64,000 bases of DNA, from UHGV virus genome UHGV-0020835. One strand, written 5' to 3'. This document shows, piece after piece, positions 27,871 through 48,418 of this stretch; the first letter of the stretch is position 1, and every line of letters begins with the position of its first letter. The translations under genes and the position numbers were made by a program. The DNA comes from a virus. Under the pieces are notes generated by a model. The model was not told where the DNA came from. It worked only from the letters and a program-made list of their open reading frames with translations, and did no database searches.

Positions 27871-28078
27871 CGAAATTACAGATATTAATGTGTATCTAGG
27901 CCAATTTTGTTTTGAACGACTACTATGCAACCTATCTATTGAGGCAGATATTATCCCACACAAGGGCGACTTTATCTTTTATAACGATGAAACCTATAAG
28001 GTCATGTATTGTATGTTAGACGTAGACCATGGTGAATATTCTGTCTTTGTGCGTGTAGCAATCGAGGAGGACTTTTGA
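27863..28078 (+). CDS. hypothetical protein
   Basis: 71-aa ORF, translationally coupled. Confidence 0.35.
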   Translation: MISEITDINVYLGQFCFERLLCNLSIEADIIPHKGDFIFYNDETYKVMYCMLDVDHGEYSVFVRVAIEEDF

Positions 28079-28614
28079 TGGTTGAGCTTAAAAAGTGGCC
28101 AACGGACGTAGATTGGGCTTGGTGCAAAGAATGTTGTCTTAATACAGTAGGCAAGACCTCTACCACACTTCCTACGGAAGAATGGAAGCGTAAGCTAATT
28201 GCGGCAGAACATAGCCCCCTAAGAGAACTATGGTTCGGCATTAAGATGACCATCCCTTATTATATTAGTGTCCATTTTGTTCGTCATCACATTGGATGTA
28301 ACCACTATGTTCAGTCCCAACGCAATGACCGACAAAACAAGTATGACCGTAATAAGGCCCCACAAGACGAACCGGTAAACCATGTTATGTCTATTAACGC
28401 TCAAGAGCTTGTGTTTATGGCTCATAAGCGTCTATGTAATCAAGCCTCTCCTGAGACTCGTGCTGTGATGCGAGAAATCGTAGATAAAGTTACTGAAAAA
28501 TGCCCTGAATTTAAGGACTTTCTTGTCCCGCTATGCGAGTATAGGGGCGGGGTCTGCACAGAATTTTACCCCTGTGGATATAATAAAACAATTAAGGAGA
28601 AAAGCAATGGTTGA
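28075..28614 (+). CDS. thyX: flavin-dependent thymidylate synthase ThyX-like protein (RHH variant)
   Basis: HFVRHHIGCNHYVQSQRN aligns with the ThyX signature RHRxxxxxxxSxRY. The upstream SPLRELWFGIKMT matches the ThyX SPFEHxxFTFH block. Located beside dut. Confidence 0.5.
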   Translation: MMVELKKWPTDVDWAWCKECCLNTVGKTSTTLPTEEWKRKLIAAEHSPLRELWFGIKMTIPYYISVHFVRHHIGCNHYVQSQRNDRQNKYDRNKAPQDEPVNHVMSINAQELVFMAHKRLCNQASPETRAVMREIVDKVTEKCPEFKDFLVPLCEYRGGVCTEFYPCGYNKTIKEKSNG

Positions 28615-29056
28615 GGTCAAAGTAAAACGCCTATCAGAAACAGCAACATTGCCCACATATGGCTCTACTAAAGCCGCTTGCATGGACTTATATGCCGATG
28701 TAAAATCCCTTGGTGTGGATAAGATTTATCTCGGTTCCGGCGATTGCTACAAAATTCCTACTGGTCTTGCCTTTCAGCCCCCTGTTGGTTTCTGTGGTTT
28801 AATCTTTGCTCGGTCTGGCCTATCTGTTAAAAAAGGGCTTAGACCTAGTAATGCAGTGGGCGTTGCAGATGAAGACTACACAGGCAATTACATTGTCGCC
28901 TTATATAATGATTCAAACGAAACCCAAGTCATTGAGCATGGTGACAGAATCGCACAGTTAATGTTTGTGCCATACTATCAAGCCAACCTGATTGAAGTAG
29001 ATGCACTTGACTCTACTGAACGTGGTGATGGAGGTTTTGGGCATACGGGCAAGTAA
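28607..29056 (+). CDS. dut: dUTP pyrophosphatase
   Basis: dUTPase motifs GLIFARSGLS, GVADEDYTGN and the C-terminal RGDGGFGHTG. The start was moved to the ATG after AAGGAGAAAAG. Confidence 0.8.
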   Translation: MVEVKVKRLSETATLPTYGSTKAACMDLYADVKSLGVDKIYLGSGDCYKIPTGLAFQPPVGFCGLIFARSGLSVKKGLRPSNAVGVADEDYTGNYIVALYNDSNETQVIEHGDRIAQLMFVPYYQANLIEVDALDSTERGDGGFGHTGK

Positions 29057-29083
29057 ATGATTGTCAAGGCTAACTAAACATCG

Positions 29084-29130
29084 AAAAAAATAGGGAACTT
29101 AGACAGAGTAAAATCCATCTAAGTTCCCTA
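29084..29130. terminator. bidirectional rho-independent terminator between convergent modules
   Basis: A7 run, then a 13-bp inverted repeat tagggaacttaga...tctaagttcccta, then T-rich sequence. Lies between the dut stop and the last minus-strand gene. Confidence 0.6.
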
Positions 29131-29148
29131 TAATTATATAATTATATG

Positions 29149-29667
29149 TTAGCCACCTTCAGCAACAAGCTCGACTTCAACAGTTTGGTCTCCGTTGTTC
29201 ACAACAGCCTGAGTCTTGGTAGTAAAACCAGTCTTACTCACAGTCAGAGTATAACTATCGCCAAGCCCAGAAAGTAGGAAGGTATTGGTTGTACCAGTAA
29301 TAGGAGCAACCTCAGCACTGTCAACATCAGTCACCTTAATAGTAGCATCAGAAGGGGTCGCATTAACAGTCAGTACAAAACCGTCCTGTAAGCTCACAAC
29401 ACCCTTAGATAGCTTAAAGAAACGGCCATCAAGACCAACACCGCAATTGCCCCTAATGGGAACAGGAATGCCAACTTCTTCCCCTTCGCTGTTATGTAGA
29501 GTAATTACTTTATTACTTGTAGTGAACAGAGCACCATCCCAACGCTGACCACAAGTAGACACAGCCTTAGTTGCATCAACAGTTGTTGCATTAACATCAC
29601 AAATAATACCATTGATAGTTTTTAATGTTTTTGAATCCAGTCGGATTCCTCCGCAAAATTTAGCCAT
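29149..29667 (-). CDS. structural-module hypothetical protein
   Basis: 172-aa Thr/Val-rich beta-type ORF at the distal end of the tail gene block. Confidence 0.4.
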   Translation of the reverse strand: MAKFCGGIRLDSKTLKTINGIICDVNATTVDATKAVSTCGQRWDGALFTTSNKVITLHNSEGEEVGIPVPIRGNCGVGLDGRFFKLSKGVVSLQDGFVLTVNATPSDATIKVTDVDSAEVAPITGTTNTFLLSGLGDSYTLTVSKTGFTTKTQAVVNNGDQTVEVELVAEGG

Positions 29668-29690
29668 ATATCATCATCCTTTCTTAGTTA

Positions 29691-31595
29691 TTATCTATAA
29701 GTTCCTTCGCCAATAGAAGTAATATAAATATCCATATTAGATGAGGCCGTATTGTTTAATGTAACACTATTCTCGCCCGTTGTCCTCGTGCAAGTCCAAC
29801 CATTTAAGTTGGCAAGGACAGAAATCGTGACCCCATCAGGATAAACAGACACACATATTAACCCACCATGGCCATTGTCAGCCACAGTCAACAAATAAAC
29901 ACCATTAGACAGAGGCACATTCACAGAGCTATTGCCAGACACAACAACCTTAGCCTTTCTCACCACATCGCTCAGAGAAGCATCAACATAACCCTTATTG
30001 GGAATGTCTACAGCTTGAGTGGGTGGCTTTAGGACAGAGGCCGTGCCGTTAATAGTTAAATCGCCACCAACCTGTACATTACCTGAGAAATTACCAGCCT
30101 TAGCCACATTATCAACATACTGCTTATTGGCCAGATGGTTGTTCTCGGTGGGTGTACCTTGGTCAATCAAATGGCCTTTAGCCGTATATCTGGCAATGCT
30201 ACTACTAAGTCCAGCATCAGACACAACACACACATCTTGCTTTGAACCATTTTGTAGATAAGCCTTTATTACGCCGTTAGGAGAGTCTACAGCCTGTACG
30301 CACTTACCAGTACAACTATCAACATACTCTTTATTGGCGATTTGGTGAGGTTGGGTGGGTTGATCTGCAAGGGCTTCGCCAGCTAAAAAGCCCATATTAA
30401 CAGCATGACTATTTTGAGTAGGATTGCCTACTGATACAGGAACATATTCGCTATGGGACGATGCTTTAACAAAAGCCGCTTCCCCACTAGTAGAGCCAAC
30501 GAGCCGGGGCGCATTAACGCCTTGTTCAATCGTTGGCCCAATATAAATAGGTGCAATTCCATCCACATGAATCTTCTGTACATTGGTAATAGCGTTTGCA
30601 CCCATGTTGATATCGCCTGACATTGTGCCGCCAGACGTAGGCAGATAGTTATTGGTTTGCTTATTCCATGTCCCATCTACTGAATTATAAGAAATGGTAG
30701 ATACCTGTTTGCTTTCAGCATCAACATGACTAAAAGACACATCAGCAGCAGAGGACGCAGACACATTATAAGTATCACCATTGAGAGTGGCATATACCAG
30801 ACGCTTGTCTAAGATAGCTTGAGTAATCTCTTGGATAGTGGTGTTTGTAAGCAAACCAGCATTCTGGTCATGTCTAAATGTAACTACAAACGTTCTATCA
30901 TCTACATATTGCTTGGTAACAGCATGAGCGCCTTCTTGTGGATCGCCCGCTAAGGTTAAAGGCCCATTCATTATACCGCCATCTAAAGGTAGATACTCAG
31001 ACAAGTCAGCAGTGTAGTCAGCATCACTCCAAGTATCTCCGCTTTCATCATGACTATACTGAATCGCCCTCGTAACCACTCTTTGGCCACCAGTTTGTAC
31101 TTGTGTATACCCGAACGTAAAACCAGCTTTATTACCATTATCGGCAAACTGAGCGTTAATTAAAGGCAATCTAGAAGAATCATACTGTACAGCAATATTT
31201 TCTTTGCTGTCAAATGCGGCCTTAATCTGTACATAAGTCTTATCAGCCGTATAATGGCCTTGATTCTCCTCTGTCAACCCAATGATAAAATCAGCAGACG
31301 CAAACTCTTGCCAATGCGTAACATTACCATCATTACTCAGGAAATGGCCCGTTGTCTCAGAGGTGATAGGCGGAATGCCTGTGTCAACAGCCGTAGTAGT
31401 GTCAGGTTGTTCAATCCATTCATTACTAGCCTCATTATACCGATATGTTTTGCTTGTATCAATTTCATAAAAACTATCGCCATTATGAGCAACAAGTATA
31501 GTCTTATCATCAGCACTTAATCCGCAATATTCAGCATACCGCATAGCGTCATAAAATGCAGGGCGTTCAAGAGTAATCATTCTTGTGCCTCCCAT
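29691..31595 (-). CDS. putative tail fibre / receptor-binding protein
   Basis: 634-aa Gly/Thr/Asn-rich ORF with repetitive beta-rich segments, in the distal tail region. Confidence 0.4.
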   Translation of the reverse strand: MGGTRMITLERPAFYDAMRYAEYCGLSADDKTILVAHNGDSFYEIDTSKTYRYNEASNEWIEQPDTTTAVDTGIPPITSETTGHFLSNDGNVTHWQEFASADFIIGLTEENQGHYTADKTYVQIKAAFDSKENIAVQYDSSRLPLINAQFADNGNKAGFTFGYTQVQTGGQRVVTRAIQYSHDESGDTWSDADYTADLSEYLPLDGGIMNGPLTLAGDPQEGAHAVTKQYVDDRTFVVTFRHDQNAGLLTNTTIQEITQAILDKRLVYATLNGDTYNVSASSAADVSFSHVDAESKQVSTISYNSVDGTWNKQTNNYLPTSGGTMSGDINMGANAITNVQKIHVDGIAPIYIGPTIEQGVNAPRLVGSTSGEAAFVKASSHSEYVPVSVGNPTQNSHAVNMGFLAGEALADQPTQPHQIANKEYVDSCTGKCVQAVDSPNGVIKAYLQNGSKQDVCVVSDAGLSSSIARYTAKGHLIDQGTPTENNHLANKQYVDNVAKAGNFSGNVQVGGDLTINGTASVLKPPTQAVDIPNKGYVDASLSDVVRKAKVVVSGNSSVNVPLSNGVYLLTVADNGHGGLICVSVYPDGVTISVLANLNGWTCTRTTGENSVTLNNTASSNMDIYITSIGEGTYR

Positions 31596-31707: not shown

Positions 31708-32580
31708 TTAACCCCCTGTATAGTCATAGTGGATTGTGGCGTTGGTGGCTCCCCAAGGAGCATCTGGGATTAAATTTTCAGACCAAGACACATAAATATC
31801 AGTTAAATTAGTACACCCCTCAAAAGCATTTGCGGCTATGGAAAGATATATCGCATCAGTAAGACTTAAATAAACCGTCTTTAAAGCCGTGCAAGATTTA
31901 AAACATTCTGATTCTATGTACAACATGTCTGATAAAGCTACTAAAGAAAACGTTTGTAAACTTGTACAGTATTCAAAAGCATTTGACTTAATTCTACCCA
32001 ATTTATTTGGTTTAAAAGTTATTTCTTTTAATCCTTTGCATTTTGAAAAAGCGTACTCGCCAATAGTCTTTACATTATCTTGTGAAAAATCTAAAGGAGG
32101 AAGAACCGTGCATCCTTCAAAAGCCCGCGACCCAATCTTTGTAATTGGTTCTGTCCAAGAAACAGAGGCTAATGCTGAACAATTCAAAAATAAGCCAGGT
32201 CTAATTTGTTTACCCACTGAACCGACTATTTCAGCAGAAATCAATTGATTGTTCTTGTACGTTTCTTTAATATAGGGCTCCGGAACAGAAGGAACAGAAG
32301 GGACATTAACAGTAATAGGACTATACGCCGTTCCCTCTGGAGCCGTTGTAACACCATTTTCAACAATTGTAATAGGTTCTATATTAACGCTACTTCCACC
32401 GGTTCCGGCTTTTTTAATCCAAGTTTTATTAGTTTTGTCAAATACATAAACTCTGCCAGTATCAATTTCTGTGAATTTTGAGCCGTTTTCTACGTTAATA
32501 GGTTTAGTGTCAATAGAGCGGCCAGCAAATGTTGAAATCTTGGGGTTGTTATATCCAGAAGGTCGAACTTGTGTTATCAT
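31708..32580 (-). CDS. leucine-rich-repeat (BspA-type) surface protein
   Basis: Repeated xAFxxCxxLxxIxLPxxxxxIGxxAF units typical of BspA-like LRRs. Confidence 0.5.
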   Translation of the reverse strand: MITQVRPSGYNNPKISTFAGRSIDTKPINVENGSKFTEIDTGRVYVFDKTNKTWIKKAGTGGSSVNIEPITIVENGVTTAPEGTAYSPITVNVPSVPSVPEPYIKETYKNNQLISAEIVGSVGKQIRPGLFLNCSALASVSWTEPITKIGSRAFEGCTVLPPLDFSQDNVKTIGEYAFSKCKGLKEITFKPNKLGRIKSNAFEYCTSLQTFSLVALSDMLYIESECFKSCTALKTVYLSLTDAIYLSIAANAFEGCTNLTDIYVSWSENLIPDAPWGATNATIHYDYTGG

Positions 32581-32675: not shown

Positions 32676-33041
32676 TTACTGTAAAATTTCCTTTAGTTTG
32701 GTATAAGCATCCTTCACATACTTACAACTAGCGCCTACAAACGCCGCGATAATAACTAAACTATCTAGCACATCCATTGTTTCTTCGCCAATATCAATGC
32801 CCACATAAGTCATATACTCAGGTAATAGACTAATAACAATAGATAGAAGAGCAATGCCGATACCAAGAACAACAAACTTTAAAAGGCTTTGCCCAATCAA
32901 CCGCCAATCAAAATCATAGCCCTCAATCTTAACATTGCGCCAAGCCCCTAGACAAATATTGCTGACATAAGCGCCTAGAAAAAGAACAACGCCGAAACCA
33001 ACTTTTTCAAGGTTGTCTAATACACAATAAACAATATTCAT
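32676..33041 (-). CDS. putative holin
   Basis: 121 aa with three predicted TM helices and a charged C-terminus, downstream of the XkdW/XkdX-like genes. Confidence 0.4.
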   Translation of the reverse strand: MNIVYCVLDNLEKVGFGVVLFLGAYVSNICLGAWRNVKIEGYDFDWRLIGQSLLKFVVLGIGIALLSIVISLLPEYMTYVGIDIGEETMDVLDSLVIIAAFVGASCKYVKDAYTKLKEILQ

Positions 33042-33043
33042 GT

Positions 33044-33292
33044 TTACTCCTTTGCCTGAAAAGCCCGATCAAACTCACGGCACATATCAGAATATTCCTG
33101 AGTGCCTTGAGCAGGAATTTTATTTTGCAGAGAAATATAAGACACCTCATCTGCACCAGAATAATGGGGTAGATCGGGATGGCCAGCATTACGAATATTG
33201 GCAAGGAACATACGTGCTGCAACATCCCAAGATACATTCTGCTTGTTAGCAATGGCAATAATTTCCTTCTTGTACTCAATAAGTTTAAACAT
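33044..33292 (-). CDS. hypothetical protein
   Basis: 82-aa ORF between the XkdX-like gene and the holin. Confidence 0.35.
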   Translation of the reverse strand: MFKLIEYKKEIIAIANKQNVSWDVAARMFLANIRNAGHPDLPHYSGADEVSYISLQNKIPAQGTQEYSDMCREFDRAFQAKE

Positions 33293-33405
33293 TATTTTTC
33301 CTCCTTTAGGATATTATCATATTCTTCTTTTGTTAGCTTCTTTGCTTTGTACAAAGCATCAATCCTTTCTTTGCTCCAAAGATAAGGATAATATTTTTTG
33401 GCCAT
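33292..33405 (-). CDS. XkdX-like small protein (about 37 aa)
   Basis: MAKKYYPYLWSKERIDALYKAKKLTKEEYDNILKEEK shows the XkdX-type KxxLTxEEYxxI pattern. Its TAATG overlaps the next gene. Below the ORF-track cut-off. Confidence 0.35.
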   Translation of the reverse strand: MAKKYYPYLWSKERIDALYKAKKLTKEEYDNILKEEK

Positions 33406-33416
33406 TTCATAAACCG

Positions 33417-33701
33417 TCAAGATAACTCAACCCCAGTCATTACAGATAAATAATCAACATCTGCGCGTAATTTTTCTTCTTCTGTAGGCACGGGAATGTA
33501 GGTGGATTCAGGGACTTCTTTGGCGGTTAATTCAATAACTTTTCCTTGCTTATTTAATACAATATCAACAAAAGGATAAGATTCAGGAATAACCACCCCA
33601 GAAGGGATTTCTACCCAACCTTCAGGAATATCCATATGGTCATCAAAAGACAAATTGTTGTGAGCGCCGTTTTCTAGCGCTTTTAGTTCAATAATTCTCA
33701 T
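33417..33701 (-). CDS. XkdW-like protein, homolog of the 40456..40764 ORF
   Basis: MRIIELKALENGAHNN...EGWVEIP...TEEEKLRADVDYL aligns with MTIIEKTARPDGGHG...EEWAEVP...TEEEDTNALLVDHEY. Confidence 0.4.
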   Translation of the reverse strand: MRIIELKALENGAHNNLSFDDHMDIPEGWVEIPSGVVIPESYPFVDIVLNKQGKVIELTAKEVPESTYIPVPTEEEKLRADVDYLSVMTGVELS

Positions 33702-34714
33702 TTTATAGCGCTCCTATCCGTACCTATTCCCCAATAATAGTAAGTTGTGTTGACCAAATTATATTTTGAACCATGGACAGGGTCTAAAGTTAATGTCACA
33801 TAATTTTGCGTTCCATTATAATAGGCTGACCATATAGTTTTAAGTGTTGTAGAACCCGAAGTATAAACCACTGGAGTAGTGCCCCACGGGATAAAAAATA
33901 CAACAGAACGGTTAGAATTAGTTTCACCACCATAAATAATTCCATAAATAATGGGCTTAAAAGGGAAATACAAATTTTTAATTACCGAGCCCGTGCCTTC
34001 GTACTTTCCAATAAAAATCTTTTTGCTCTCTAATGCGTTATCATTGGGCACCCCAAGATATACATATTCTATATCATTGACAATTTGATTTTTAGGATAG
34101 GCATTAAAATTGGACGAATAAACATATTCCCATTCACCAAGCGCTCTTTTCGCCGACACTCGATCACCAGAAAAAGTAATAAAATAATTACTTCCGGGTG
34201 AAGCATCAGAAGTATCAGACCCAGTTGCGGTGGTTACTTTGGCCACAAAGGGGTTTTCAGTAGCTGTATGAACACTTGTATCAACTTTTACAGCATTGCA
34301 CTTTACATAATAGTCAGCCGCAGCGTTTAAAGAAGTATAATTTGAAGCAGAAACATTAATCGTACCAACCACATCTTTAAGTGCCCAAGTATTTGTCGGT
34401 TCGTCATAAGTATAGCCCGATGCGTATTGGATGGTACTCACCGATCCAGACGAACTCCCCGTATACAGATAAAGTTTTGGATATGAATTTTCTGTTATTT
34501 CTAAAACATTGCTTCTTTTTTTCCAACAATATAAATAATTCTTACTCAATACTTCCAACGCATCGCCGACACTTGTCTTACTCGTCCCCGCGCCAAAGAA
34601 ATTTTCTGCGGTAGTTTGATTCATTTTAACCTGAGCATCGTTGGTAATGGGATATAAAATATCATAATCTGTACCATTAAACTGTTTCATCAAAATATTT
34701 TTATCAATTGCCAT
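33698..34714 (-). CDS. putative tail fibre / distal tail protein
   Basis: 338-aa Thr/Ser/Tyr-rich beta protein upstream of the chaperone-like pair. Confidence 0.35.
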   Translation of the reverse strand: MAIDKNILMKQFNGTDYDILYPITNDAQVKMNQTTAENFFGAGTSKTSVGDALEVLSKNYLYCWKKRSNVLEITENSYPKLYLYTGSSSGSVSTIQYASGYTYDEPTNTWALKDVVGTINVSASNYTSLNAAADYYVKCNAVKVDTSVHTATENPFVAKVTTATGSDTSDASPGSNYFITFSGDRVSAKRALGEWEYVYSSNFNAYPKNQIVNDIEYVYLGVPNDNALESKKIFIGKYEGTGSVIKNLYFPFKPIIYGIIYGGETNSNRSVVFFIPWGTTPVVYTSGSTTLKTIWSAYYNGTQNYVTLTLDPVHGSKYNLVNTTYYYWGIGTDRSAIK

Positions 34715-34732
34715 TATCTCACCCCTTTATTT

Positions 34733-35323
34733 TTAAACAATTCTCATAATATAGCACAGCGCATAGTAAGGGGGCATGTTTTCATGTGGTTGTCCTCCGC
34801 CTGTGGCTTCGGCTGTTGCAGTAATAGTGTGCGTGTGTTCTCCAGCTGTCGAAGTACCATAGCTCCCCGAATAGCTACCTAGGCCATAAGAAGTACCCGT
34901 ATTGCCGTGGCCAAAAGAATCATAGTTTATGTCATGGCTATGTGAGCCATCGGAACTCGTGCTTCCGGTAACCATGTGTGTGTGAGAAGGCATGTTTTCA
35001 ACGCTTAAACTGGCCGTGCTAGAGCCCCCGGTTTGGCCAACACTATAATTATTCCCCGCGCCCAAAACAAATTTGTCTCTTAAATCTGGTGTTCCATTCG
35101 TGCCATCACACAGATGCCAATTTGCTGGAATGTTGTTTTCTGTCCCACTCCATGCAACGATTGTTCCCTTTGGAACAGAAATCGAACCAGCTATAGCATT
35201 ATTGAGCTCTTGTTCAAAACTGGTGTAATTTGTATTGATTTGCTGAATCATCTCATTAAATCGTTCCATTGTGAACAAATCGCTACTTTGAAAATATCTT
35301 ATCTCGCTAATGATTACCACCAT
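34733..35323 (-). CDS. tail fibre protein with phage tail-collar domain
   Basis: The collar-domain signature appears as VPKGTIVAWSG...IPANWHLCDGTNGTPDLRDKFVLGAG. A Gly/Ser/His-rich repeat lies in the C-terminal half. Confidence 0.5.
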   Translation of the reverse strand: MVVIISEIRYFQSSDLFTMERFNEMIQQINTNYTSFEQELNNAIAGSISVPKGTIVAWSGTENNIPANWHLCDGTNGTPDLRDKFVLGAGNNYSVGQTGGSSTASLSVENMPSHTHMVTGSTSSDGSHSHDINYDSFGHGNTGTSYGLGSYSGSYGTSTAGEHTHTITATAEATGGGQPHENMPPYYALCYIMRIV

Positions 35324-35404
35324 CCTCTATCTATATAATACCATGTTAATCCTAATCTATTAACCTCTCCAAACGTATAATTTAGTTTATCAATATCACC
35401 AAAA

Positions 35405-35695
35405 CTATAGGGGGGGGGAGTTTGTCCAATCAAAATACACCTGTCCTTCGTCTAAATCTGTGGGAACTTGTGGCGTGACTTCAATCTTATCCCTCAAAAA
35501 CAAAGGATCATTTAATTCCTCAACCTCTACGATTTTAGATGTTAAAGCATTAAGTGTTTGTGCTGTTAGACCCTTATATACTAATTGTTCGTTTTCGGCA
35601 ATGCTTACCGCAGTACCATAATCGCCATTTTTCCATGCTTGCTGGATTTGCGTCCATAATGATTTATCAGCTAATTGAATGTCAGAAAATTTCAT
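35405..35695 (-). CDS. hypothetical tail protein ending in a poly-C(9) tract
   Basis: 96-aa ORF ending ...SPPL. Its last codons lie in a G9/C9 homopolymer at 35410..35418. Confidence 0.4.
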   Translation of the reverse strand: MKFSDIQLADKSLWTQIQQAWKNGDYGTAVSIAENEQLVYKGLTAQTLNALTSKIVEVEELNDPLFLRDKIEVTPQVPTDLDEGQVYFDWTNSPPL

Positions 35696-35704
35696 TCAAT
35701 CACC

Positions 35705-36022
35705 TCAATTTGTTACTTCAAACCAAAAATCAGTAGCGTTTTGAAGAACAGGCTGTGTTTTAGATACCACATAAGCTGGGCTATATCGGCGTTCAAAGTA
35801 TTCTTCTACAGCAACTACCGTATCATTGATTGTATTAAGATAATCAGCGGTAATTATTTTGTTTTGGTTGTTTGGGATTTGAACAAGAATTTGTTGGGCA
35901 AGAGCGAGATCGCCAGCTTGAATTGCCGCTTGATATTGTGCTACAAGTGCGCCATCAGAGGCAGAGATATTTTGCATTTGTGGAAAAACTTGAGTTTGTC
36001 CCGGAAATGAAGTAGCCACCAA
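35705..36022 (-). CDS. hypothetical tail protein
   Basis: 105-aa ORF, translationally coupled. Confidence 0.4.
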   Translation of the reverse strand: MVATSFPGQTQVFPQMQNISASDGALVAQYQAAIQAGDLALAQQILVQIPNNQNKIITADYLNTINDTVVAVEEYFERRYSPAYVVSKTQPVLQNATDFWFEVTN

Positions 36023-36034
36023 TTATCGCCTCCT

Positions 36035-37459
36035 TTAATAAAGTGGATAGTATGGATAAAAACTAATCATTGACACTGACATGGTTGATGTAACACTACT
36101 ATAATCAACAGAATAAGATTTAACAATATATCTATTTTGCGTTTTGCTGTCTTTAGAGGCATGAGATACAACAATATTTACATCCATCCAAGGTATAGGC
36201 ACAATCTCTAATGAAATGCTATCATTAAGCCGACATTTCCAATAAATCTCTATTTTAGCCCTCTCTAAAGCCAGTTCATCAGACATAATGTTGTCATAAT
36301 CGCCCCCATATAAAACTTCCCTAATTCTTCCAACGGGGCCGTTTACGTAAAAAGGGCTATCTGGATTATCATCTTGCCATATAGCCTTAGCTTGCTGTCC
36401 TCCTAAAAACAACCAAGTCCCATTGGTTTGATACTGTGCGACATAATACACATTATTTTTAAGAGAAGTAATGTGTGCGTTGGTAGAGCTTACAAGATCT
36501 TTACTGCCGAAAGAATTGACGGCTAATTTAATATCGCCACTCACATCTTTGTCCGGTGTAAAGCCAATAATATTATAAGCATTAAGCGTAGTTAAATCAG
36601 CAATTGTCATTGAAATAACTGGGCCCGATACGCTAATTTCAGAAGGGTAATAATTAGATTCATGTGTACGGCCATATACCTCAATATAATTCTTAACAGT
36701 GGTAAAGTCTGTATTGATATTTTCGCCAACAATCACGTTTTCCCAAACATCATCATCAATTAGTACAGAATCATCTTCTCCGGTTGGAATAGGCTCATAA
36801 TGAAATACGCCGTCTACATCGAAATAAATTTGATATTGCGGTAAAATATCCCTTAGCTTTGACAAAATATCAAACACATAGCCGCCTTGGTCAATCTCTA
36901 TATCATAGGGCACGGCTTGCACAGTACCATCCCGATTAGTGCATTCGCTAACAATATATTTGGTAAATCCACCTAGTTTAAGCGACGCTATTATGGCTTC
37001 GCGCACAGATTCACCTTGCTTAATAACTGTGGGAACGCCCTCAAGTTGGCCGTTTCTCGCGCCAGTCAGCTTAGACATCAAATCAAGGCCAGAAAAAGAC
37101 AAAACATTATTAGTGGCATCATATTGCCAAGAAGGCGCATCAATTAAATAAATTCCTTGATTATACCATTGAATTTCATCCGTATAAATGTTTTTAAGGC
37201 CAATGTATACTTGAATATATTTGTCTAGCCAAATGCGTCCTCCTGGCTGAATGTCAAATGTTTTATTAACAACCACAAGACTGACATCACAACTTCGCCT
37301 TAAATCACTATCAGCATCACACCGAACGGAACAAGACACCATGTTGCCACTAATTTCGTCTACGATATTATAATTAAAATCAAGCAGATTAATTTTAATA
37401 TATCTTTCTGTAGTCCGTTGCTTGATGATATTATAATCATTTTGTGTGATATTTAGCAT
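36035..37459 (-). CDS. putative baseplate (J-like) protein
   Basis: 474 aa. Size and position between baseplate and fibre genes. Confidence 0.35.
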   Translation of the reverse strand: MLNITQNDYNIIKQRTTERYIKINLLDFNYNIVDEISGNMVSCSVRCDADSDLRRSCDVSLVVVNKTFDIQPGGRIWLDKYIQVYIGLKNIYTDEIQWYNQGIYLIDAPSWQYDATNNVLSFSGLDLMSKLTGARNGQLEGVPTVIKQGESVREAIIASLKLGGFTKYIVSECTNRDGTVQAVPYDIEIDQGGYVFDILSKLRDILPQYQIYFDVDGVFHYEPIPTGEDDSVLIDDDVWENVIVGENINTDFTTVKNYIEVYGRTHESNYYPSEISVSGPVISMTIADLTTLNAYNIIGFTPDKDVSGDIKLAVNSFGSKDLVSSTNAHITSLKNNVYYVAQYQTNGTWLFLGGQQAKAIWQDDNPDSPFYVNGPVGRIREVLYGGDYDNIMSDELALERAKIEIYWKCRLNDSISLEIVPIPWMDVNIVVSHASKDSKTQNRYIVKSYSVDYSSVTSTMSVSMISFYPYYPLY

Positions 37460-37463
37460 ATCA

Positions 37464-38372
37464 TCACCTCTTCGTAGGGATTAGGCCATTTTCATATAGG
37501 TCGTTTTTATCATTGGGATCGCCAATTTCTGTCCATTCGGCACTAACCTTAACCATGCCTTGACCATAGTTATTAGCATAACTCAGACTAGGATTGCCAG
37601 TAAAATAGACCAGCCAATTATTACCATTCATATCTTTAATAATTTTTGGCTTTTTATTTGTTAAGAAATTAAGCAAAGATTCTTTTTCTTTCGTAATAGC
37701 ATATCTATCAACCAATCTGTCTTTTTCAAAGTTCTTAGGTAGCACCCATCCCCCAATAGAGCCAGATTTATATTGCATGACGCTATTGCTTACTACAACA
37801 GGATATTTCCTGTTATAAGGCTGAAATACGCCAATCTGTTGATTAACAGTGTTGTTATTATATTCTACGTCAGCCATAAACTTAAACACCGTGTTTATAT
37901 CACAAATAAACACGCCTTCAAATTTGGACAAAATAGATTCAATAATATAACTGCCTTCAACATCCCCCAGCATAGGCACAAAAGCATACTCGTATTCAAC
38001 GCCATATGCGTTTAAATTATCGGTGATTACAAAAGATAAATCTTCTGTGGTATTGACAGGGACTTCTTTAATTGTTATCCAATCAAAGGTTCCTTTTATA
38101 CGCCGTTTTACACGAATACTGGTAATATCTTTCCACATTTGCTCAACGTTACCAGCTAACACATTGCCATTGAAATTGGCACCCATAATAGTGTCTAAAT
38201 CCCATTCAGTAGGCTGAATAGAGTTATAATCAAATATTACATTTTTTGTTACATTAAAATGGTCAAAAATGCCATTTTGTAATTTAGTGTTTACAATCTT
38301 ATTGATACCTGTTGGCGTTGGGTCAGCCGAGTTGCCATCACCACAAAGGTTATATCCAATAAACCCAATCAA
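37464..38372 (-). CDS. putative baseplate protein
   Basis: 302 aa, translationally coupled. Confidence 0.35.
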   Translation of the reverse strand: MIGFIGYNLCGDGNSADPTPTGINKIVNTKLQNGIFDHFNVTKNVIFDYNSIQPTEWDLDTIMGANFNGNVLAGNVEQMWKDITSIRVKRRIKGTFDWITIKEVPVNTTEDLSFVITDNLNAYGVEYEYAFVPMLGDVEGSYIIESILSKFEGVFICDINTVFKFMADVEYNNNTVNQQIGVFQPYNRKYPVVVSNSVMQYKSGSIGGWVLPKNFEKDRLVDRYAITKEKESLLNFLTNKKPKIIKDMNGNNWLVYFTGNPSLSYANNYGQGMVKVSAEWTEIGDPNDKNDLYENGLIPTKR

Positions 38373-39448
38373 ACCTCAACACCTCGATTCTCAATCTTTA
38401 ATTCATACACATTATTTATTCGTCTTAACCAGCAAAACAATTGTTCTGTACTATCAGGCAGAGCAATGTGTTGAGACTCTATTACATACCCCCAAAGATT
38501 CCTTTCATGAACAGCCCTCATTTCAAACCAACAACTTTCATCTTTAGCGCAATATGTAATAATAATAGTATCACCATTGACATTGCTAAACCTAAAAATT
38601 TCTTTGTTAGGCGTGTAATCTCGCCCCCAAATACGTGTAGTAAAGTCGCCATCTATTTCATACCCTTGTGTCCATTGAACATATTGTCCTTCTCCTCTTA
38701 TATCAATTTCTTTATTATCAATATAGGTGGGCGAAGGAGGATTTGTTTCGCCATCAATAGCGATAACGTTTGAAACAATAGTAATATATCCGCCTTGGCA
38801 ATTGTTGGACAAAAACAAAGAGCTAAAAGCATCAGGGGCAATGTAGTTCGTGGTAAAGCCAATTCGCCCCGTAGTAATTTGTGTGCCGTTTGTAGTAACA
38901 CCAGTTACTTCAACACTGTAACTAGCCTTATCCTCAAATCCGCTAAATAAATAACTAATATTCAATGGTAAGGTAGTATCAGTATTATACATTGTGCCAG
39001 ACGTGCTAATTAAAGTGCCTGAAATACTATAAAGATTAAATACATAAGCATTAAGTGTTTCGCCTTGAATCTGATTATATTGCACATTAAAAGCAAAGCT
39101 ACTATTGGTCACCACATTGCCAGTCGGCATATTACTAATAACAAACGTAGGCTGACTATAACAATAGAACTGAATGGGGTTGGACGGGCTGGATTCATTG
39201 CCCTGTGCATCTTTAGTGGTCAAAGTGGCCTGATAATATGTGCCGTTGGTTAACGTATTGGCAGGTAGCGTATGCTCAAACCGATAGGTTGTCTGAGTCT
39301 GAGAGTACACAGTGGTCAAAGTTACGTTGTCTTTAATTGTTAGGGTATTTGCTACAACTTGCGGGCCACTAATTGACGCAAATGTAAACACCATAGAGTT
39401 TTGCGCATCAAAAGCTGGAATGGAATATAAAATAGGAGTTGTCAACAT
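38369..39448 (-). CDS. putative distal tail / baseplate protein
   Basis: 359-aa Thr/Asn-rich ORF. Confidence 0.35.
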   Translation of the reverse strand: MLTTPILYSIPAFDAQNSMVFTFASISGPQVVANTLTIKDNVTLTTVYSQTQTTYRFEHTLPANTLTNGTYYQATLTTKDAQGNESSPSNPIQFYCYSQPTFVISNMPTGNVVTNSSFAFNVQYNQIQGETLNAYVFNLYSISGTLISTSGTMYNTDTTLPLNISYLFSGFEDKASYSVEVTGVTTNGTQITTGRIGFTTNYIAPDAFSSLFLSNNCQGGYITIVSNVIAIDGETNPPSPTYIDNKEIDIRGEGQYVQWTQGYEIDGDFTTRIWGRDYTPNKEIFRFSNVNGDTIIITYCAKDESCWFEMRAVHERNLWGYVIESQHIALPDSTEQLFCWLRRINNVYELKIENRGVEV

Positions 39449-40215
39449 AAACGCAAAGCCTCCTCTATGATTTTTTCTATATGTTGTTTTTCATAATACC
39501 AAATTTCTAAGAGATCTATGTTATGATTTTTAGCCCATTCTTTTTTTATCTCATCTCGTATTTTTTGGCTTTCCCATTGCTCTTTAGTTTGCACACCATT
39601 TGGGTTCTTTTTATAAGGAATACCATCGTGGAATTCCCCCTGATATTCTATTAAAAGATTATGTTTTAATAAATAAAAATCAAAAAACATAAAATTATCT
39701 TTATCACTTTTCAAATCTTCAAATGTTTTTTGACGAATAAAAGGAATGTTATGTTTACTTAAAATTTCAGCTATTTTTTGTTCCCCAAGTGAATTATTAA
39801 CGCAATTGCATTTGGGTAAATTAGGATTATGAATTGACCGATGAGTAAAATTACTCCAATCACTAACAATAGTCTTGCCATCAATGAACTTAACTGTTAT
39901 ACCGTGAGAATGAGCGTTACGATATTCGATAATTTCACATTCCATGCCACAATTCATAACTGCTTTTAAACCTTCTCGTCTGGTTTTACAGTTTAAACTA
40001 CGTGCTTTACTACAATTGTTTAACTTAGGCACAGTTGGACACTGTATTTCCCCATGGAGAAACTCATAATAACTCTTATGGCAATTAACACTACCGTCTG
40101 GAAATTGTACAGTAATATCATGTGTATTGAAATACTCAATTATAGTGCCCTCTACGCCACAATTCATACGTTTAACAGCACCTAAACGTTCATTACGTTT
40201 AGATTGTTTAGCCAT
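39442..40215 (-). CDS. putative PD-(D/E)xK-type homing endonuclease with tandem N-terminal DNA-binding repeats
   Basis: Two copies of NCGxEGxIIEYxNxHxITVxFxDG. The C-terminal FDFYLLKHNLLIEYQGEFHDG resembles the DUF559/Vsr-like D...E-x-K(Q) nuclease core. Free-standing, at the border of the GC-rich island. Confidence 0.4.
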   Translation of the reverse strand: MAKQSKRNERLGAVKRMNCGVEGTIIEYFNTHDITVQFPDGSVNCHKSYYEFLHGEIQCPTVPKLNNCSKARSLNCKTRREGLKAVMNCGMECEIIEYRNAHSHGITVKFIDGKTIVSDWSNFTHRSIHNPNLPKCNCVNNSLGEQKIAEILSKHNIPFIRQKTFEDLKSDKDNFMFFDFYLLKHNLLIEYQGEFHDGIPYKKNPNGVQTKEQWESQKIRDEIKKEWAKNHNIDLLEIWYYEKQHIEKIIEEALRLC

Positions 40216-40313
40216 TTATTCACTCCTTTCTACCAACACCGTCGCGATAACGATGATTTCCTTCCTTTCTTTTGTGTGGGTGGTTTATTCTATGCGGCTT
40301 GTCCGCTGTGGGG

Positions 40314-40454
40314 TTACTGAGCGTCCAGCAGGGCGGTCAGCTCTGTGTACTGGGCCTCGGTGAGCTTACCGGCGGCGTAGAACACGTCCAGTTTCTCAGC
40401 AAGGCCCTCTGTCTGGCCCCGCTCGATCATGCGCTTGAGTACCCGATAGAGCAT
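40314..40454 (-). CDS. XkdX-like small protein (46 aa), GC-rich copy
   Basis: MLYRVLKRMIERGQTEGLAEKLDVFYAAGKLTEAQYTELTALLDAQ with a strong GGGGAGGTG RBS. Not in the ORF track. Confidence 0.4.
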   Translation of the reverse strand: MLYRVLKRMIERGQTEGLAEKLDVFYAAGKLTEAQYTELTALLDAQ

Positions 40455-40455
40455 T

Positions 40456-40764
40456 TCAGTTCACCTCCCCGTTCACACCCAGCTCCAGGAGCGTCAGGCG
40501 GTATTCGTGGTCTACCAGCAGGGCATTGGTGTCTTCCTCTTCTGTGGGGACAGCGGGAGAGACGGGCCGCTCAATGGGGGCAACGCCCGTCAGCCTGTCC
40601 CCCTCAAAGGCGAGGTCACAGTACCCGCAGCACGCCCACACGGCGGATTCAAGATGTGCGGGAACCTCTGCCCATTCCTCGCCCATCCAGTTCTCTGTGC
40701 GATGGCTCTGGCTTTGCAGCCCGTGCCCTCCGTCAGGCCGTGCCGTTTTTTCGATGATGGTCAA
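40456..40764 (-). CDS. XkdW-like protein, GC-rich copy
   Basis: 102-aa ORF with an AGGAGGGA RBS. Homologous to the 33417..33701 ORF. Confidence 0.4.
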   Translation of the reverse strand: MTIIEKTARPDGGHGLQSQSHRTENWMGEEWAEVPAHLESAVWACCGYCDLAFEGDRLTGVAPIERPVSPAVPTEEEDTNALLVDHEYRLTLLELGVNGEVN

Positions 40765-40776
40765 TTTCTGTCCCTC

Positions 40777-43700
40777 CTATCTGAATGCGATGTAGAATCG
40801 GACAAGGCCTCTGTCGTTGATGCGGTTATAGCCGTTTCCACTGATTTTGTGGACAGCGAAGCCGGTTTCCGTCAGCTCCAGCACCGGCGCGCCGCCGCTG
40901 GTGACCGGCTTGCCGGGCAGGGCAAGACCGCCGTGGATGACGGGCCACGAGCCGGTCTGATAGCCCGTCATGGCGTCGGAGCTCACCACCAGCACCGCCC
41001 TTGGCTGGAACCCCAGGTCGATGTTCTGGGTCTCCGCGTCGTCGCCGGTGTAGCTGCCGGTCACCGTAGCTACCCGCTGATAATCCCACCACGGGAATGC
41101 AGACAATACACCGTCCTGCGGAACGTATCCCTGTACTCCGTCGCTTGTGATGTTCGTGCCAACGGCCAGCCCAGAAGTCTCAGCCACTCCCGCAAAGAGA
41201 ACATCGCAGTTTTGCCCAGCGGAAGCGGAAGTAAGAGCGATTGCGTCTTTGGATGAGATTACCCATCTTCCCGCAATCTGCCCGTTGTTGAATTCAAGCG
41301 TTGTAGCATAATAATTATTTGAATAGTTCCCGAAAAGAAACACACGTTTATTATCCAGCTGAGTACCAAATACAGGGTATCCACTGCTGAACACCGCAAC
41401 ATCCATTTGTGTGCCTAGCGAAGCTGCTAGATTATCAATCTGAATTGGAAACACACTTGAAGAGAAGGCGATCAGCATCTCCCCGTTAAATGTAAATACT
41501 GCTGTGGAATGACTAGGCACAGATGCAAGCAACTGTGTTTTTGTCCCGGCTGAAATCGCGTTACCAGAGATAGTACAAGCATACCCATAGAAGATATCGC
41601 TGTTGATATACCCAACAAAGACATCCGTGCCGTTCACGCAGCAAAACGGCGTACAGCTGACCGATTCCAGCAACTGAGTTGCACCGAAAGATGCAGTTCC
41701 TGCCTCATCCACATTTACGATAGCGCAAAATAGTTTGCCCGCCGAATTTGTAGCGGCAACAAAAACTTTTTTGCCGGAGATAAGTTGTGCATCTAAAGTA
41801 CTGATATTGTAACTGCCAATATTCGAATCTGGTATGAGATTCTGAATTGTTCCCGGCGTAATTGTCGTTCCGGAAATGGAAAGATGTTGTACAGGAAGAC
41901 CACCCACGTTGTATAGGCCAAACACGACAAGAACACTTGTATTAGAAAAACGGATCAGCTTTACCTTGTCGTACTTACTTGAGCTTCCCCCAACGTTAAG
42001 TTGAACCTTTGCCCCCGGAGTAATTGTTGTTCCAGATATAGTACAGACCCAAGCAAAGTCTCCTTGATTAGAACGGGCTACAACAACAAACCTTAAGCTG
42101 TCCAATGCCACGATCCCGAAGGGTTGTGTGGCGTAGGAGGTGTCGCTGAATTCCTGGGTTGCAATAATAGACACTGGCTTTATGCTGTCGGTTACACGGA
42201 ACAGGGTAATTGTATAGTAGCCTGTAGACCTGTCTATCGACATAGTTACGCCTGTTTCTGCGCTCAACATACACGAAAGCATTGTATAACCATTAAGCAA
42301 CGTCGGTTCCACATTTTCCGCTCTAACTTTCTTCACAAGCTCCCCGTCCACCACATCCACCACGTCACCCACGGCGATGCTCTGGCCCGCTGCTGCGGGG
42401 TAGGTGCCACGGACGGCCTTACTGCGGTCTTTGAGGCCGTTGTCCACGTAGCTTTTCGGTGCCGCGTCGGTGTCAGCCTCCGGCGTGGGGAGATTCTGGA
42501 GCTTCTGGCCGCCCATGTCGAGATTTCCGGTCATCGTCCCGCCGGATTTGGGGAGCTTCGTGTCGGCATACGCCTTGATGCCGCCAGCCGTTGCCACGTC
42601 ACCGTTTGGATCGTATACAGATTTAAGCATATCACCAGACCCAGCCGCACTCAATGCGTCACTAACGGCTTTTTCACTCGGCACCTTGGTTGCACTTGTT
42701 CCAAGAGTTGTAGTGATATCGGATGTGGATACAGCGCCTACATCGCTTGCCCCTAATGTGACCACCCCTGTTTTGTTATTGATAGAAGTAACAGGTGCGA
42801 TCTGTAAGGCGGTATCTGCTTTGTCAAGTGATGCTTGCACATCGCCCGATAAATCGCTTTTAGCCACGCTTGACTTAAATGCCAAACTGCCAAGGTCACT
42901 AAACCACTTGGCGATTTTGCCGAATATAGTAGATAATTTTTCGCCACTTGAGATATTGGTTCGGCCTGATGCTTGGGAGAAAGTTGAAGCTGTATTGTCT
43001 ACATTGCCATATATGTGCTGCGCTCGGACTTCCTTCCACTGAGCGAGATACGTCCCCAATGACACCGCGCCGGTTTTGTATGGTGACAAGTCACCGTACA
43101 TTGTACTGCCGCCACGGTTAACTAATGTTCCTTCAATACCACCAGAAATACCCGTGAACGCAATTTGCGTTGCCGCGAGCCAACCATATTCTTGAGTAGG
43201 TTGAGCACGAAATGTTATTCGAAAACGTTTCCCAGTCCCGTTAACCTGTACCCCCATATACTGTGTGTTTACAACTTCATCGAAGGGGATATTATCCCGC
43301 TCAGCTACAAAAACGTATTGGTCAGCAACAGAATCATAAATTTCAATCTTATAATAACTACAATTTTGCTTGGCCGCGCGCCAATAAAATGACACGCCGT
43401 TTTCCCACTTTAACACCAAATTCGAATCAATCACAATAGAAACTTTAAGGTTTTTGACATCCATCAAAAGCGTATCATGGGCAGTTGATACATCTTTCCA
43501 CGCCCCGGTAGAATCACCTTCCGGTATTACACCTTGGGATCCTTTCAGTGCCTTATACCATCTAAAAACGCCGGATGCGGTTTGGTACATAACACGGGCA
43601 TTTTGCGGATAATTACTTGTTTCACTCCACAAACAAACAGTTTGTGCATGGCTTGGGCCAGCACCAAAGTTAATATATGTGCTGGATTTTCCATCAAATA

Positions 43701-47800: not shown

Positions 47801-48418
47801 TAGCGCCAGGAAATTATTAAGCTGAGTTGTACCCGCTAGAGTAGTGGCAATATATTTTTGAGTGTTGCCGTCTAATCCATCCCATTTTTCCGCCAATTCA
47901 CCGAGCAATTCATAACTACTTCTTAACTGTTCCTCGTTATCGTACATTGAAACATTGAGGTCATCAAAAATCCGAATAATTTTTTCGCCGTTTGACGAGG
48001 CAGGATCCAAAACCTGACTAAGGTTTGCAAAAATAGCGTTAAGCCCCCGAGAGGCCTTGCTAGCATTTTTTGTTTGTTCGGTAATTGCGGTAAGCATACC
48101 AATTGTAGATTCCAGAGAATTGCCCATTGAAGACGATGTAGAAGCCACAATCTTTAAACCAGTCGCTAAATCACCTGTACCAACAGCAAAATTGTTTGCC
48201 ACAGAGTTGACCGCATCTATAATATGAGTTGCATTTGCTTCAACATCACCCGTGGTTTGATTAAATGCAATTAACTGAGAAATTAAAAATTCAGCAGAAT
48301 CGCCAGCGGAAATAGTTTCATCTGCCACATTCTGGAACATTGAGCTAACACGAGCTAGCGATGCAGCATCTTCATCGTTGAAGCCATTTTTACGGAAGTT
48401 GGTTGCCGCGTCAACCAT
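44828..48418 (-). CDS. tail tape measure protein
   Basis: 1196 aa, highly alpha-helical and coiled-coil, with a hydrophobic central segment and a Gly-rich C-terminal region. Confidence 0.7.
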   Translation of the reverse strand: MVDAATNFRKNGFNDEDAASLARVSSMFQNVADETISAGDSAEFLISQLIAFNQTTGDVEANATHIIDAVNSVANNFAVGTGDLATGLKIVASTSSSMGNSLESTIGMLTAITEQTKNASKASRGLNAIFANLSQVLDPASSNGEKIIRIFDDLNVSMYDNEEQLRSSYELLGELAEKWDGLDGNTQKYIATTLAGTTQLNNFLALMNNFDHATEATNTALNSQGSALNENASYMESVQAHLSQLGSQFQQFANNVLDSGLVNGLLSIAKSLLQIASTPLGTIVSQIVLLTSLGWGATSLAHATGIISTIVQQFKNLKDVFAAGKLITSIHSLSDAFILLQGASGAVLPILLAISAAIVGLYAFSKTDWFQKTFNGAEYVKNKISEVNAEIESTKQKIQELKEQGANQNVIDMYSDKLEGLQKQLAEFNQQRFDLTFGNATTQPTVSYGGKEWATQSLIIQGQIDKFYELKEAMQKATSVEEFEKLKEQLNELVGTFEEYHAVGQQAVADGAEMDDTQRDLWYQLIDIVGTTEEVAQKTVDLRIAQAQTAPAAAVLANQLINEAGQLGITKEKMIDLIYQSIVFNNTDFDVSQKVAALAQVAEMAFGVQGALAGISNGGLVNDPTYRQLMNSGMSQAEAEQAYLQIKWNTWLAPYRKKLAEADIVTTDNDVVTGGGGGSSGSRSSTTKEKTAVEKLTEAWKEQLSLLKDRLELLEKSGATEEEQVSQMKKIQEAIHATANKYRALGLSEDSEQVRQLKILWWDYQNDIDKIYDEIEKRAKEAAEKQAEEEKKAAEEAKEAWEKALNERKDAYEAASSYMVDRIDERLEALEKQKTEEEQKWQDEIDKLNEENGLLEDQIKYQQLLDNLAKAKSKKLYVFKDGQFQYVQDVEAIAEAQSELDSYNREKALEEETKRLEALKDEAVENIQTQIDWWQKYREEWADVTQQYTREQNRLLAEQALGIKLEGDNWAIRLGQAKKFANEYTGIMSEITAVGNMVPTAGEAGGGYKGASSGISGYDLAEIQRAKQDFANAKTDEERIEAHQRAEAIRNKYGYSGGADGSQYIPKTPTVSASKGGSSSDSGSKSAVSAVISGITSVIKKLTGHADGTLGATGGLSLVGEQGPELRVLGNGDSIIPADVTRNLWNWGKIDPTVLSNKSNTQIFNIDNLSLPNARDAESLVAGLKNLAYQRAYKRA

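Follow-up and report, generated by a model that had tools for sequence, protein, structure and literature searches.

Does a run of nine C residues near the end of a small phage tail gene reflect an error in the sequence, a site of programmed recoding, or a mutation that can switch part of the protein on and off? The question is raised by the UHGV virus genome UHGV-0020835, of which we analysed one stretch of 64,000 nucleotides (hereafter the window). On its minus strand, an open reading frame (ORF) of 96 amino acids (aa) stops just past such a run (C9), and the reading frame reached by losing a single C continues up to the next gene, which encodes a collar-type fibre. On balance, and with moderate confidence, we read C9 as a real, heritable +1C slipped-strand allele, and the locus as contingency-like, a possible on/off switch for one side fibre. 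What carries this reading is a frame break inside a conserved coding sequence, a C8/C9 polymorphism that is reproducible across samples, and the joint loss of the C-terminal tail and the fibre gene in related lineages. The features concerned are as follows.

35405..35695, minus strand: 0-frame ORF of 96 aa, consisting of N-terminal module residues 1-92 (ending FDWTN), SPPL and TAG
35410..35418, minus strand: poly-C9 tract, TCC CCC CCC C, at the boundary between N-terminal module and C-terminal tail; C8 plus one C
35314..35409, minus strand: +1-frame continuation of 31 codons (YSFGDIDKLNYTFGEVNRLGLTWYYIDRGWW) plus TAA, out of frame here
34733..35323, minus strand: collar or Gp10_C-type fibre gene, 196 aa, with Pfam and PHROG matches

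A frame break inside a conserved protein

Read along the minus strand, the gene ends ...TTT GAT TGG ACA AAC TCC CCC CCC CTA TAG, with C9 (G9 on the plus strand, 35410-35418) occupying codons 93-96 of the ORF, the last codons before the stop (...SPPL-stop), in line with the earlier note. The 96-aa product terminates in ...VYFDWTNSPPL, and an identical protein is present in the database (P0002). When one C is removed, the sequence instead runs ...SPP-YSFGDIDKLNYTFGEVNRLGLTWYYIDRGWW to a stop, so that 31 residues replace the final L and the total becomes 126 aa; the junction peptide spanning the break in this longer form is TNSPPYSFGDIDK / ...VYFDWTNSPPYSFGDIDK. The stop of the extension, TAA at 35314-35316, lies within ATGGTGGTAA, which also contains the ATG of the collar-type gene (35321-35323). 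The claim that the alternative frame ends at the start of the fibre gene therefore holds, with an extension of 31 codons whose stop overlaps the ATG region.

No homopolymer in the window, of whatever base, is as long as C9; the next G/C run is 6 and the next A/T run 7. A first-order Markov model of the window predicts about 0.12 G/C runs of at least nine, and two or more G8 matches were reached in 17 of 100 shuffles; as a bare run, C9 is only mildly unusual. Its placement is not explained by chance, because the frame break sits inside an ORF that runs unbroken in about 85 homologues. These come from a search with the repaired 126-aa protein, which returned 93 homologues, about 85 of them uninterrupted single ORFs of 126 aa (a few of 125) with 100% query coverage and 54-94% identity. 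The last 31 residues are conserved in the homologue alignment as Y-[TK]-F..[VI]D.LG[LI].W...[DN][RK]GGW, in which Y106, F108 and L114 are nearly invariant, in agreement with the earlier impression that the extension resembles real protein. Since the homologues cover the extension with conserved residues, the family protein is 126 aa long and the window holds a frame-broken allele. We make no claim of special nucleotide conservation for the extension, as other islands, such as the paralogue gene described below, match it.

Alignment together with paralogue comparison revealed that residues 1-92, ending (F/Y)(D/E)WTN, form a module that is found in three places. In the 126-aa family this module is followed by S/P-P-P and a 30-residue aromatic tail. 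The second occurrence is the neighbouring gene:

35705..36022, minus strand: paralogue of 105 aa consisting of the N-terminal module only and ending ...FWFEVTN-stop (hhalign probability 96%, E 1.7e-9, family positions 4-92)

This paralogue lies upstream of the 126-aa-family gene in every related locus and stops at the same boundary at which C9 truncates its neighbour. The third occurrence is in the Enterocloster phage PMBT24, whose 248-aa 'chitin-binding' protein, encoded after the baseplate hub, begins with the module. Neither Pfam nor PHROGs holds a family for the 126-aa protein, a PDB profile search gave no significant match for it, and its AlphaFold2 model is poor (mean predicted local distance difference test score, pLDDT, 46). 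The protein probably forms a trimer.

C8 and C9 alleles among related phages

We compared the tract with that of related contigs of 84-101 kb from gut metagenomes, in which the following alleles occur.

TCC CCC CCC (C8), in frame, 126 aa: L015 and L022 (one clone) and L016; L022 at 65x coverage
C9, out of frame, 96 aa: the window, L001 and L003-L008
TCC CCA CCC, in frame: L002
AAT TCC TCT CCC, in frame: L039-45, the commonest close relatives
CCG CCT CCT or AGC CCA CCC, in frame: more distant relatives

Close relatives are thus polymorphic for tract length in a way that switches the frame: the C9 allele (96 aa) and the C8 allele (126 aa) have near-identical flanks, with a single substitution (G/A at -19) in the nearest 50 nt, and they stand beside the interrupted allele TCCCCACCC and TCCTCTCCC. 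By this series the homopolymer is evidently a recent, lineage-specific result of codon drift, and C9 is C8 plus one base. Searches of other collections added little: JGI metagenomes yielded one related locus, with C8; GenBank phages gave no match to the locus or to the 126-aa protein in nucleotide and protein searches; and no relatives were found in IMG/VR (by protein-pattern scan, alignment-based scan or DNA pattern) or among GTDB genomes.

Before any biological meaning is attached to C9, it has to be asked whether the true genome is C8 with an ordinary 126-aa gene and the extra base arose in sequencing or assembly, one of the alternatives in the earlier note. The break falls exactly in the window's longest homopolymer, and dropping one base restores a conserved ORF. 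Moreover, L001, the sole replicate of the window's clone, shows 100% identity with it across 3445 nt and may come from the same sample, in which case this clone has no independent replicate. However, C9 is present in six of six further contigs, L003-L008 (ERZ27287024/28, ERZ28614152, ERZ28615127, ERZ28615764 and ERZ4562321, the last from a Hadza gut sample), which come from five samples and at least three projects and were assembled with MEGAHIT or SPAdes. These six represent one clone: upstream, no differences separate them over up to 1776 nt, and their divergence from the window is 4.8%. ERR7738550 is a further C9 sample. C8 is equally reproducible, in three contigs of sister clones (L015, L016 and L022); the C8 samples are ERZ1034928 (65x), ERZ28623800 and SRR27430268. 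A context-dependent artefact is implausible because near-identical flanks give C9 in one clone and C8 in its sister. In addition, the other large ORFs of the window are intact (1196-1336 aa), with no broken genes and no further sign of homopolymer error. We conclude that C9 is very probably the true majority sequence and that an assembly error is very unlikely.

The distribution of the two alleles over haplotypes bears on how often the tract has changed. The window (C9) and the C8 clone L015 have a common downstream haplotype, with one difference in about 190 nt, while L003 (C9) and the C8 clone L016 have a common upstream haplotype; the two C9 alleles themselves differ at -55 and +47. Because C9 lies on two haplotypes, each of which also occurs with C8, there must have been at least two changes between C8 and C9, or else recombination breakpoints within about 100 nt on both sides. 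Recurrent C8/C9 slippage is likely on this pattern. Recombination is in evidence at the locus, as in a comparison spanning 33000-38000 the window and L003 are about 5% apart upstream of the tract and nearly identical from +280 to +1350, a segment comprising the C-terminus of the collar protein and the adjoining 338-aa gene, which points to recent recombination of the distal fibre module.

The C-terminal tail, its fibre and the effect of C9

The collar-type gene downstream of the tract just meets the Pfam cutoff for Gp10_C (PF21939; E 6e-6, 27.7 bits against a cutoff of 27) and falls below that for Collar (PF07484; E 0.065, 13.6 bits against 24), and it matches the PHROG tail collar fibre protein at 3e-29, over the C-terminal part of longer fibres. 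Its N-terminus is MVVIISEIRYFQSSDLF in the window and MAVTPF(I/Q/K)SSD.F in relatives, and since F(Q/K/I)SSD.F is conserved in relatives, the upstream ATG (35321-35323) is the real start. Relatives have a GGGAGGA Shine-Dalgarno (SD) sequence within the last part of the 126-aa gene, 8 nt ahead of the fibre ATG. The window lineage differs in that GAGG sits directly against the ATG, without usable spacing, and that the ATG overlaps the TAA, from which we infer that translation of the fibre is probably coupled to the upstream ORF. A fusion with the collar gene was discarded: the 96-aa ORF shares the frame of the collar gene but is separated from it by many stops, and the extension is in frame -1 relative to the collar gene, with a TAG two codons before the ATG.

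Across the related loci, whenever the tail is intact, the next gene begins at its stop or 1 nt past it. The C-terminal parts of this next gene vary widely, and it may encode a collar-type protein (196-198 aa) or proteins of 152 aa and 294 aa. Three lineages have no functional tail, and each also lacks the downstream fibre gene. In L009-14, a natural 96-aa gene ends TNPTSL-stop; the extension and the collar gene are both absent, and the next gene encodes a 606-aa protein with the N-terminus MSVEKHITMKQYNGTDYDILYP, homologous to the window's 338-aa gene. L020 has a 95-aa version ending TNSLS-stop, and its fibre block is deleted. In L017-19 (SRR14369301 and related runs), the third codon of the extension (W98) has changed from TGG to TGA (at about 1790-1800 of these loci), giving 97 aa; the remainder of the extension is still readable in frame after the TGA, and of the fibre gene that comes next just 13 codons are left (MAVTPFKSSDNFN, then a stop). 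Six distinct 97-aa sequences (P0091-93, P0106 and P0113-114) indicate that this nonsense allele is widespread. Reading the TGA as Trp was considered for these homologues and rejected, as TGG encodes the other Trp residues seen in the 3' part, the genes on either side keep their full length and the fibre downstream has been deleted. Homologues that end at the position of the window's ORF, without any extension, are thus a minority (L009-14 and L020) from lineages that also lack the collar fibre, whereas about 85 of 93 carry the extension.

The truncated products all end within five residues of the module boundary (95-97 aa), and in L009-14 and L020 the ...DWTN boundary is the recombination or deletion junction for exchange of the fibre module. 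Together, these patterns make the tail look like an accessory, fibre-linked module. We suggest that the N-terminal module is essential, that the tail may serve the downstream fibre, for example as a docking peptide, and that the pair is dispensable.

Under the slipped-strand reading, events might have run as follows. The ancestral family would have encoded N-S-P-P-Y with mixed codons, until a synonymous change in one sub-lineage produced an uninterrupted C8 (TCC CCC CCC). Slippage of DNA polymerase on C8 would then have given C9, and presumably could lead back to C8. On C9, translation would halt two codons past the run, yielding the 96-aa product that keeps the N-terminal module and loses the 31-residue aromatic tail, and ribosomes would stop 82 nt before the TAA that overlaps the fibre ATG. 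With ribosomes no longer reaching this TAA, the collar fibre would probably be under-translated, and would also be undocked if the tail, as its co-occurrence with the fibre suggests, serves the fibre encoded next to it as a docking peptide. The wide circulation of C9 phages would fit with this, because the tail/fibre pair is accessory and is lost outright in other lineages. That the change is reversible, that fibre translation is uncoupled, that the tail docks the fibre and that host range may be affected are all inferences. The tail might also not be lost entirely from C9 genomes: a 39-aa ORF (35314..35433) begins with a TTG that has an SD-like GAAGGA 10 nt upstream, and internal initiation there could supply the tail as a separate peptide.

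Several observations weigh against this reading, beyond the doubtful independence of L001. Mosaic recombination is rampant at the locus, and both C9 haplotypes could have a single origin. Tract length is constant within each clone (C9 in six of six contigs; C8 in both L015 and L022), which argues against very fast switching, at least at the level of consensus sequences. The homopolymer is not conserved, and as most relatives, including the commonest close ones, use interrupted tracts for the same residues, there is no sign of selection maintaining a mutable tract. Finally, there is one long G/C tract per 64 kb, whereas Campylobacter phages have several.

Some of these points lend themselves to a plainer account, in which C9 is an inactivating frameshift of a dispensable tail and fibre, an early stage of decay with no switch and no regulation. 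It would match the three lineages in which a nonsense mutation or a deletion removed the tail along with the fibre, the constant tract length within clones, and a homopolymer that is neither conserved nor enriched. Within the second C9 clone, moreover, L004 has acquired one nonsynonymous change, R to S, in the extension. However, the extension is intact in all C9 contigs, the two C9 clones differ there by two synonymous changes only, and the 196-codon collar ORF is intact in both, with no stops or indels. The collar genes of the two clones differ by 7 synonymous and 9 nonsynonymous changes; a C9-linked relaxation of this gene, judged by the ratio of nonsynonymous to synonymous substitution rates (dN/dS), was dropped as a candidate since comparisons with the in-frame relative L002 give the same picture. 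C9 on two haplotypes that also occur with C8 would, in addition, require a hypermutable tract or very tight recombination. We therefore consider one-way loss fairly unlikely.

The intact sequences also mildly favour another reading, in which C9 is a recoding site, either through a +1 ribosomal frameshift at CCC_C, with peptidyl-tRNA-Pro re-pairing one base downstream so that the next codon is UAU, or through slippage of RNA polymerase on the nine-base run to give C8 transcripts. The outcome would be a fixed ratio of 126-aa and 96-aa subunits with fibre translation gated by coupling, as in gp17.1/gp17.1* of phage SPP1, in which a programmed +1 frameshift occurs at CCC UAA at the 3' end of a tail gene (PMC6316719). 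The tract offers three overlapping (U/C)CC_C sites, a +1 slip at any of which gives the family sequence S-P-P-Y-S-F, and the 0-frame stop follows two codons on. A CCC codon followed by C is found in just 8 of the 116 CCC codons of the phage's long ORFs. C9 contigs (the window, L001, six of P0095 and one of P0101) also outnumber C8 contigs (four of P0099 and one of P0103), which would be odd for a plainly deleterious allele.

Nevertheless, the frameshifted arrangement is not conserved and, with about 85 homologues encoded as plain single ORFs, is not a trait of the family. This phage uses CUA, the A-site codon, at 11.5 per 1000, which is not rare, and the stop is not adjacent to the slippery codon. 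No SD-like stimulator is present within about 10 nt upstream, and no downstream structure is predicted, the 131-nt region folding less stably than its shuffles (z = +1.65). The window has no Rfam match and, over its 64 kb, no tRNA gene and hence no suppressor tRNA. Two synonymous changes are too few to show selection, and efficient transcriptional slippage is documented mainly for A/T runs. For these reasons we regard recoding as unlikely. Of the two mechanisms raised by the earlier note, slippage is supported at the level of differences between clones, by close relatives with C8 or C9, and ribosomal frameshifting, though possible, is unsupported. We hold it quite doubtful that C9 is a newly evolved recoding site that makes a fixed mix of 96-aa and 126-aa adaptors, with the collar fibre translated only by frame-shifted ribosomes. 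If this were the case, the site would set the stoichiometry of the fibre on the baseplate, and a programmed frameshift would have been caught arising from an in-frame gene within a few percent divergence.

A further mode of action is known from poly-C/G spacers that tune the promoters of Bordetella fim and Neisseria opc. A consensus scan of the coding strand finds a comparable site whose spacer contains the tract and which lies about 80 nt ahead of the fibre ATG:

35404..35433, minus strand: sigma-70-like TTGATT-18 nt-TATAGT, C tract in the spacer (18 nt with C9, 17 nt with C8), 9/12 matches

Tract length could then tune this internal promoter and so alter transcription of the collar fibre. 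Yet the match is weak at 9/12, and 4.1 kb of this AT-rich DNA contain 29 such sites where chance would give 16. Conserved codons (F-D-W and P-Y-S) dictate both hexamers, the genes lie close together within one late operon, and the fibre ATG lacks an SD that could serve independent initiation. TTGATT-N18-TATAGT is most likely a by-product of coding, and we give promoter tuning hardly any credence.

Genomic setting and comparison with known systems

The window belongs to a gut phage of about 87 kb that has not been cultured; Enterocloster bolteae phages are its distant relatives. Its minus-strand block is the phage structural module, which starts with the portal gene, followed by a virion protein, and includes the following genes.

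60926-62485, minus strand: portal, at the start of the structural block
44828-48418, minus strand: tape measure
40777-44787, minus strand: 1336-aa structural protein
39442-40215, minus strand: HNH/homing-endonuclease ORF, 257 aa (PHROG 559, 5e-30)
36035..37459, minus strand: baseplate/tail protein of 474 aa with a C-terminal DUF5048 domain (DUF5048 1e-27; PHROG tail protein)
33698..34714, minus strand: fibre-like gene, 338 aa, N-terminus MAIDKNILMKQFNGTDYDILYP

Around the tract, the order on the minus strand is the 474-aa DUF5048 gene, the 105-aa, 96-aa and collar-type genes, and the 338-aa fibre-like gene. The 474-aa protein shares 47% amino-acid identity with the 'baseplate hub protein' of PMBT24, which together with CB457P2 is the nearest cultured phage to the window by this protein; both infect Enterocloster bolteae. 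Because the DUF5048 gene lies just upstream, the locus belongs to the tail-tip module. Two relatives have other frame or length variants in this tail-tip block: in L005 (ERZ28615127, 1-1161) it is called as two ORFs (288 and 191 aa), and in L042 (45-1791) it encodes 498 aa and is followed by a 90-aa paralogue.

Elsewhere in the block, GC content reaches 0.49 at 40001-44000, within the ORF at 40777-44787, compared with 0.36-0.41 in the flanks, and several long antisense ORFs are present there; the segment could be repeat-rich or horizontally acquired. The HNH ORF, which separates the gene for the 1336-aa protein from those of the baseplate, may be a mobile insertion. A 290-aa protein encoded downstream of the fibre genes (31708-32580, minus strand) may be an additional adhesin, and its counterparts in L001 and L002 (287-290 aa) have matches to Pfam LRR_5 (BspA-like leucine-rich repeat). 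At about 28000-29700, gene orientation and GC skew flip, with genes on the plus strand as far as about 29 kb and structural genes on the minus strand beyond it, marking the border of two divergent or convergent gene blocks.

Should C8/C9 prove to be a working switch, homopolymer contingency loci in phage adsorption machinery would be known from uncultured gut Clostridia phages as well as from those of Campylobacter and the T-even group. The design would be compact, one base toggling a docking peptide and, via coupling, the fibre that uses that peptide. For annotators, the gene should not be silently repaired, as several human populations harbour the frameshift as a real allele. Interrupted tract, C8 and C9 form a series that, with the nonsense and deletion alleles alongside, amounts to a small natural experiment on the essential parts of a tail-tip adaptor: every allele retains the N-terminal module, whereas loss of the 31-residue tail and the fibre has occurred repeatedly.

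Three kinds of known system invite comparison. Besides SPP1, the Listeria phage PSA reportedly uses programmed +1 frameshifting at the 3' end of tail and capsid genes, with a slippery CCC directly before the stop, in work ascribed to Zimmer and colleagues in 2003. As in SPP1 and PSA, a proline CCC at the 3' end of a tail gene can re-pair in the +1 frame close to the 0-frame stop, a C-terminal extension is encoded in that +1 frame, and the host is a low-GC Gram-positive bacterium. Unlike in those phages, the sequence here is CCC CUA UAG, with the stop not adjacent, and most homologues lack the arrangement; nor is the extension a folded domain, having 31 residues.

Modular tail-fibre loci of phages of Gram-positive bacteria, in which a conserved anchor at the N-terminus is joined to distal parts that can be exchanged, as in PMBT24, have the same N-terminal helical module after a DUF5048 baseplate protein, and there too the boundary after ...TN is a point of recombination or truncation. 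In contrast to PMBT24, the window lineage has the module as a separate small gene with a short tail, the distal fibre being encoded by the next, translationally overlapped gene.

Closest to the slipped-strand reading are two sets of phage loci. Campylobacter Fletchervirus phages carry hypermutable polyG tracts in several genes, among them receptor-binding ones (Sorensen et al. 2021, Cell Rep 35:109214; cited in PMC10877375), and contingency loci have been reported for T2/T4 as well as further phages (Gomez, Barrick & Waters 2025, PMC12633550). These loci have in common with the window a G/C homopolymer inside a phage structural or tail gene, a one-base change that toggles the frame between truncated and full-length products, and both tract lengths among near-identical phages. 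The present case differs in having a single tract per 64 kb, which is lineage-specific and constant within a clone at consensus level, in affecting a small adaptor-like protein rather than the receptor-binding domain itself, in being known at the level of assembled sequences, and in its host, a gut Firmicute instead of Campylobacter or E. coli. Of the hallmarks of contingency loci, it has a simple-sequence tract (a homopolymer of about 7 or more) within the reading frame and a length polymorphism among close relatives that switches this frame, but not a tract that is conserved or enriched. Taken together, the locus on present evidence works like a contingency locus, short of established membership of that class.

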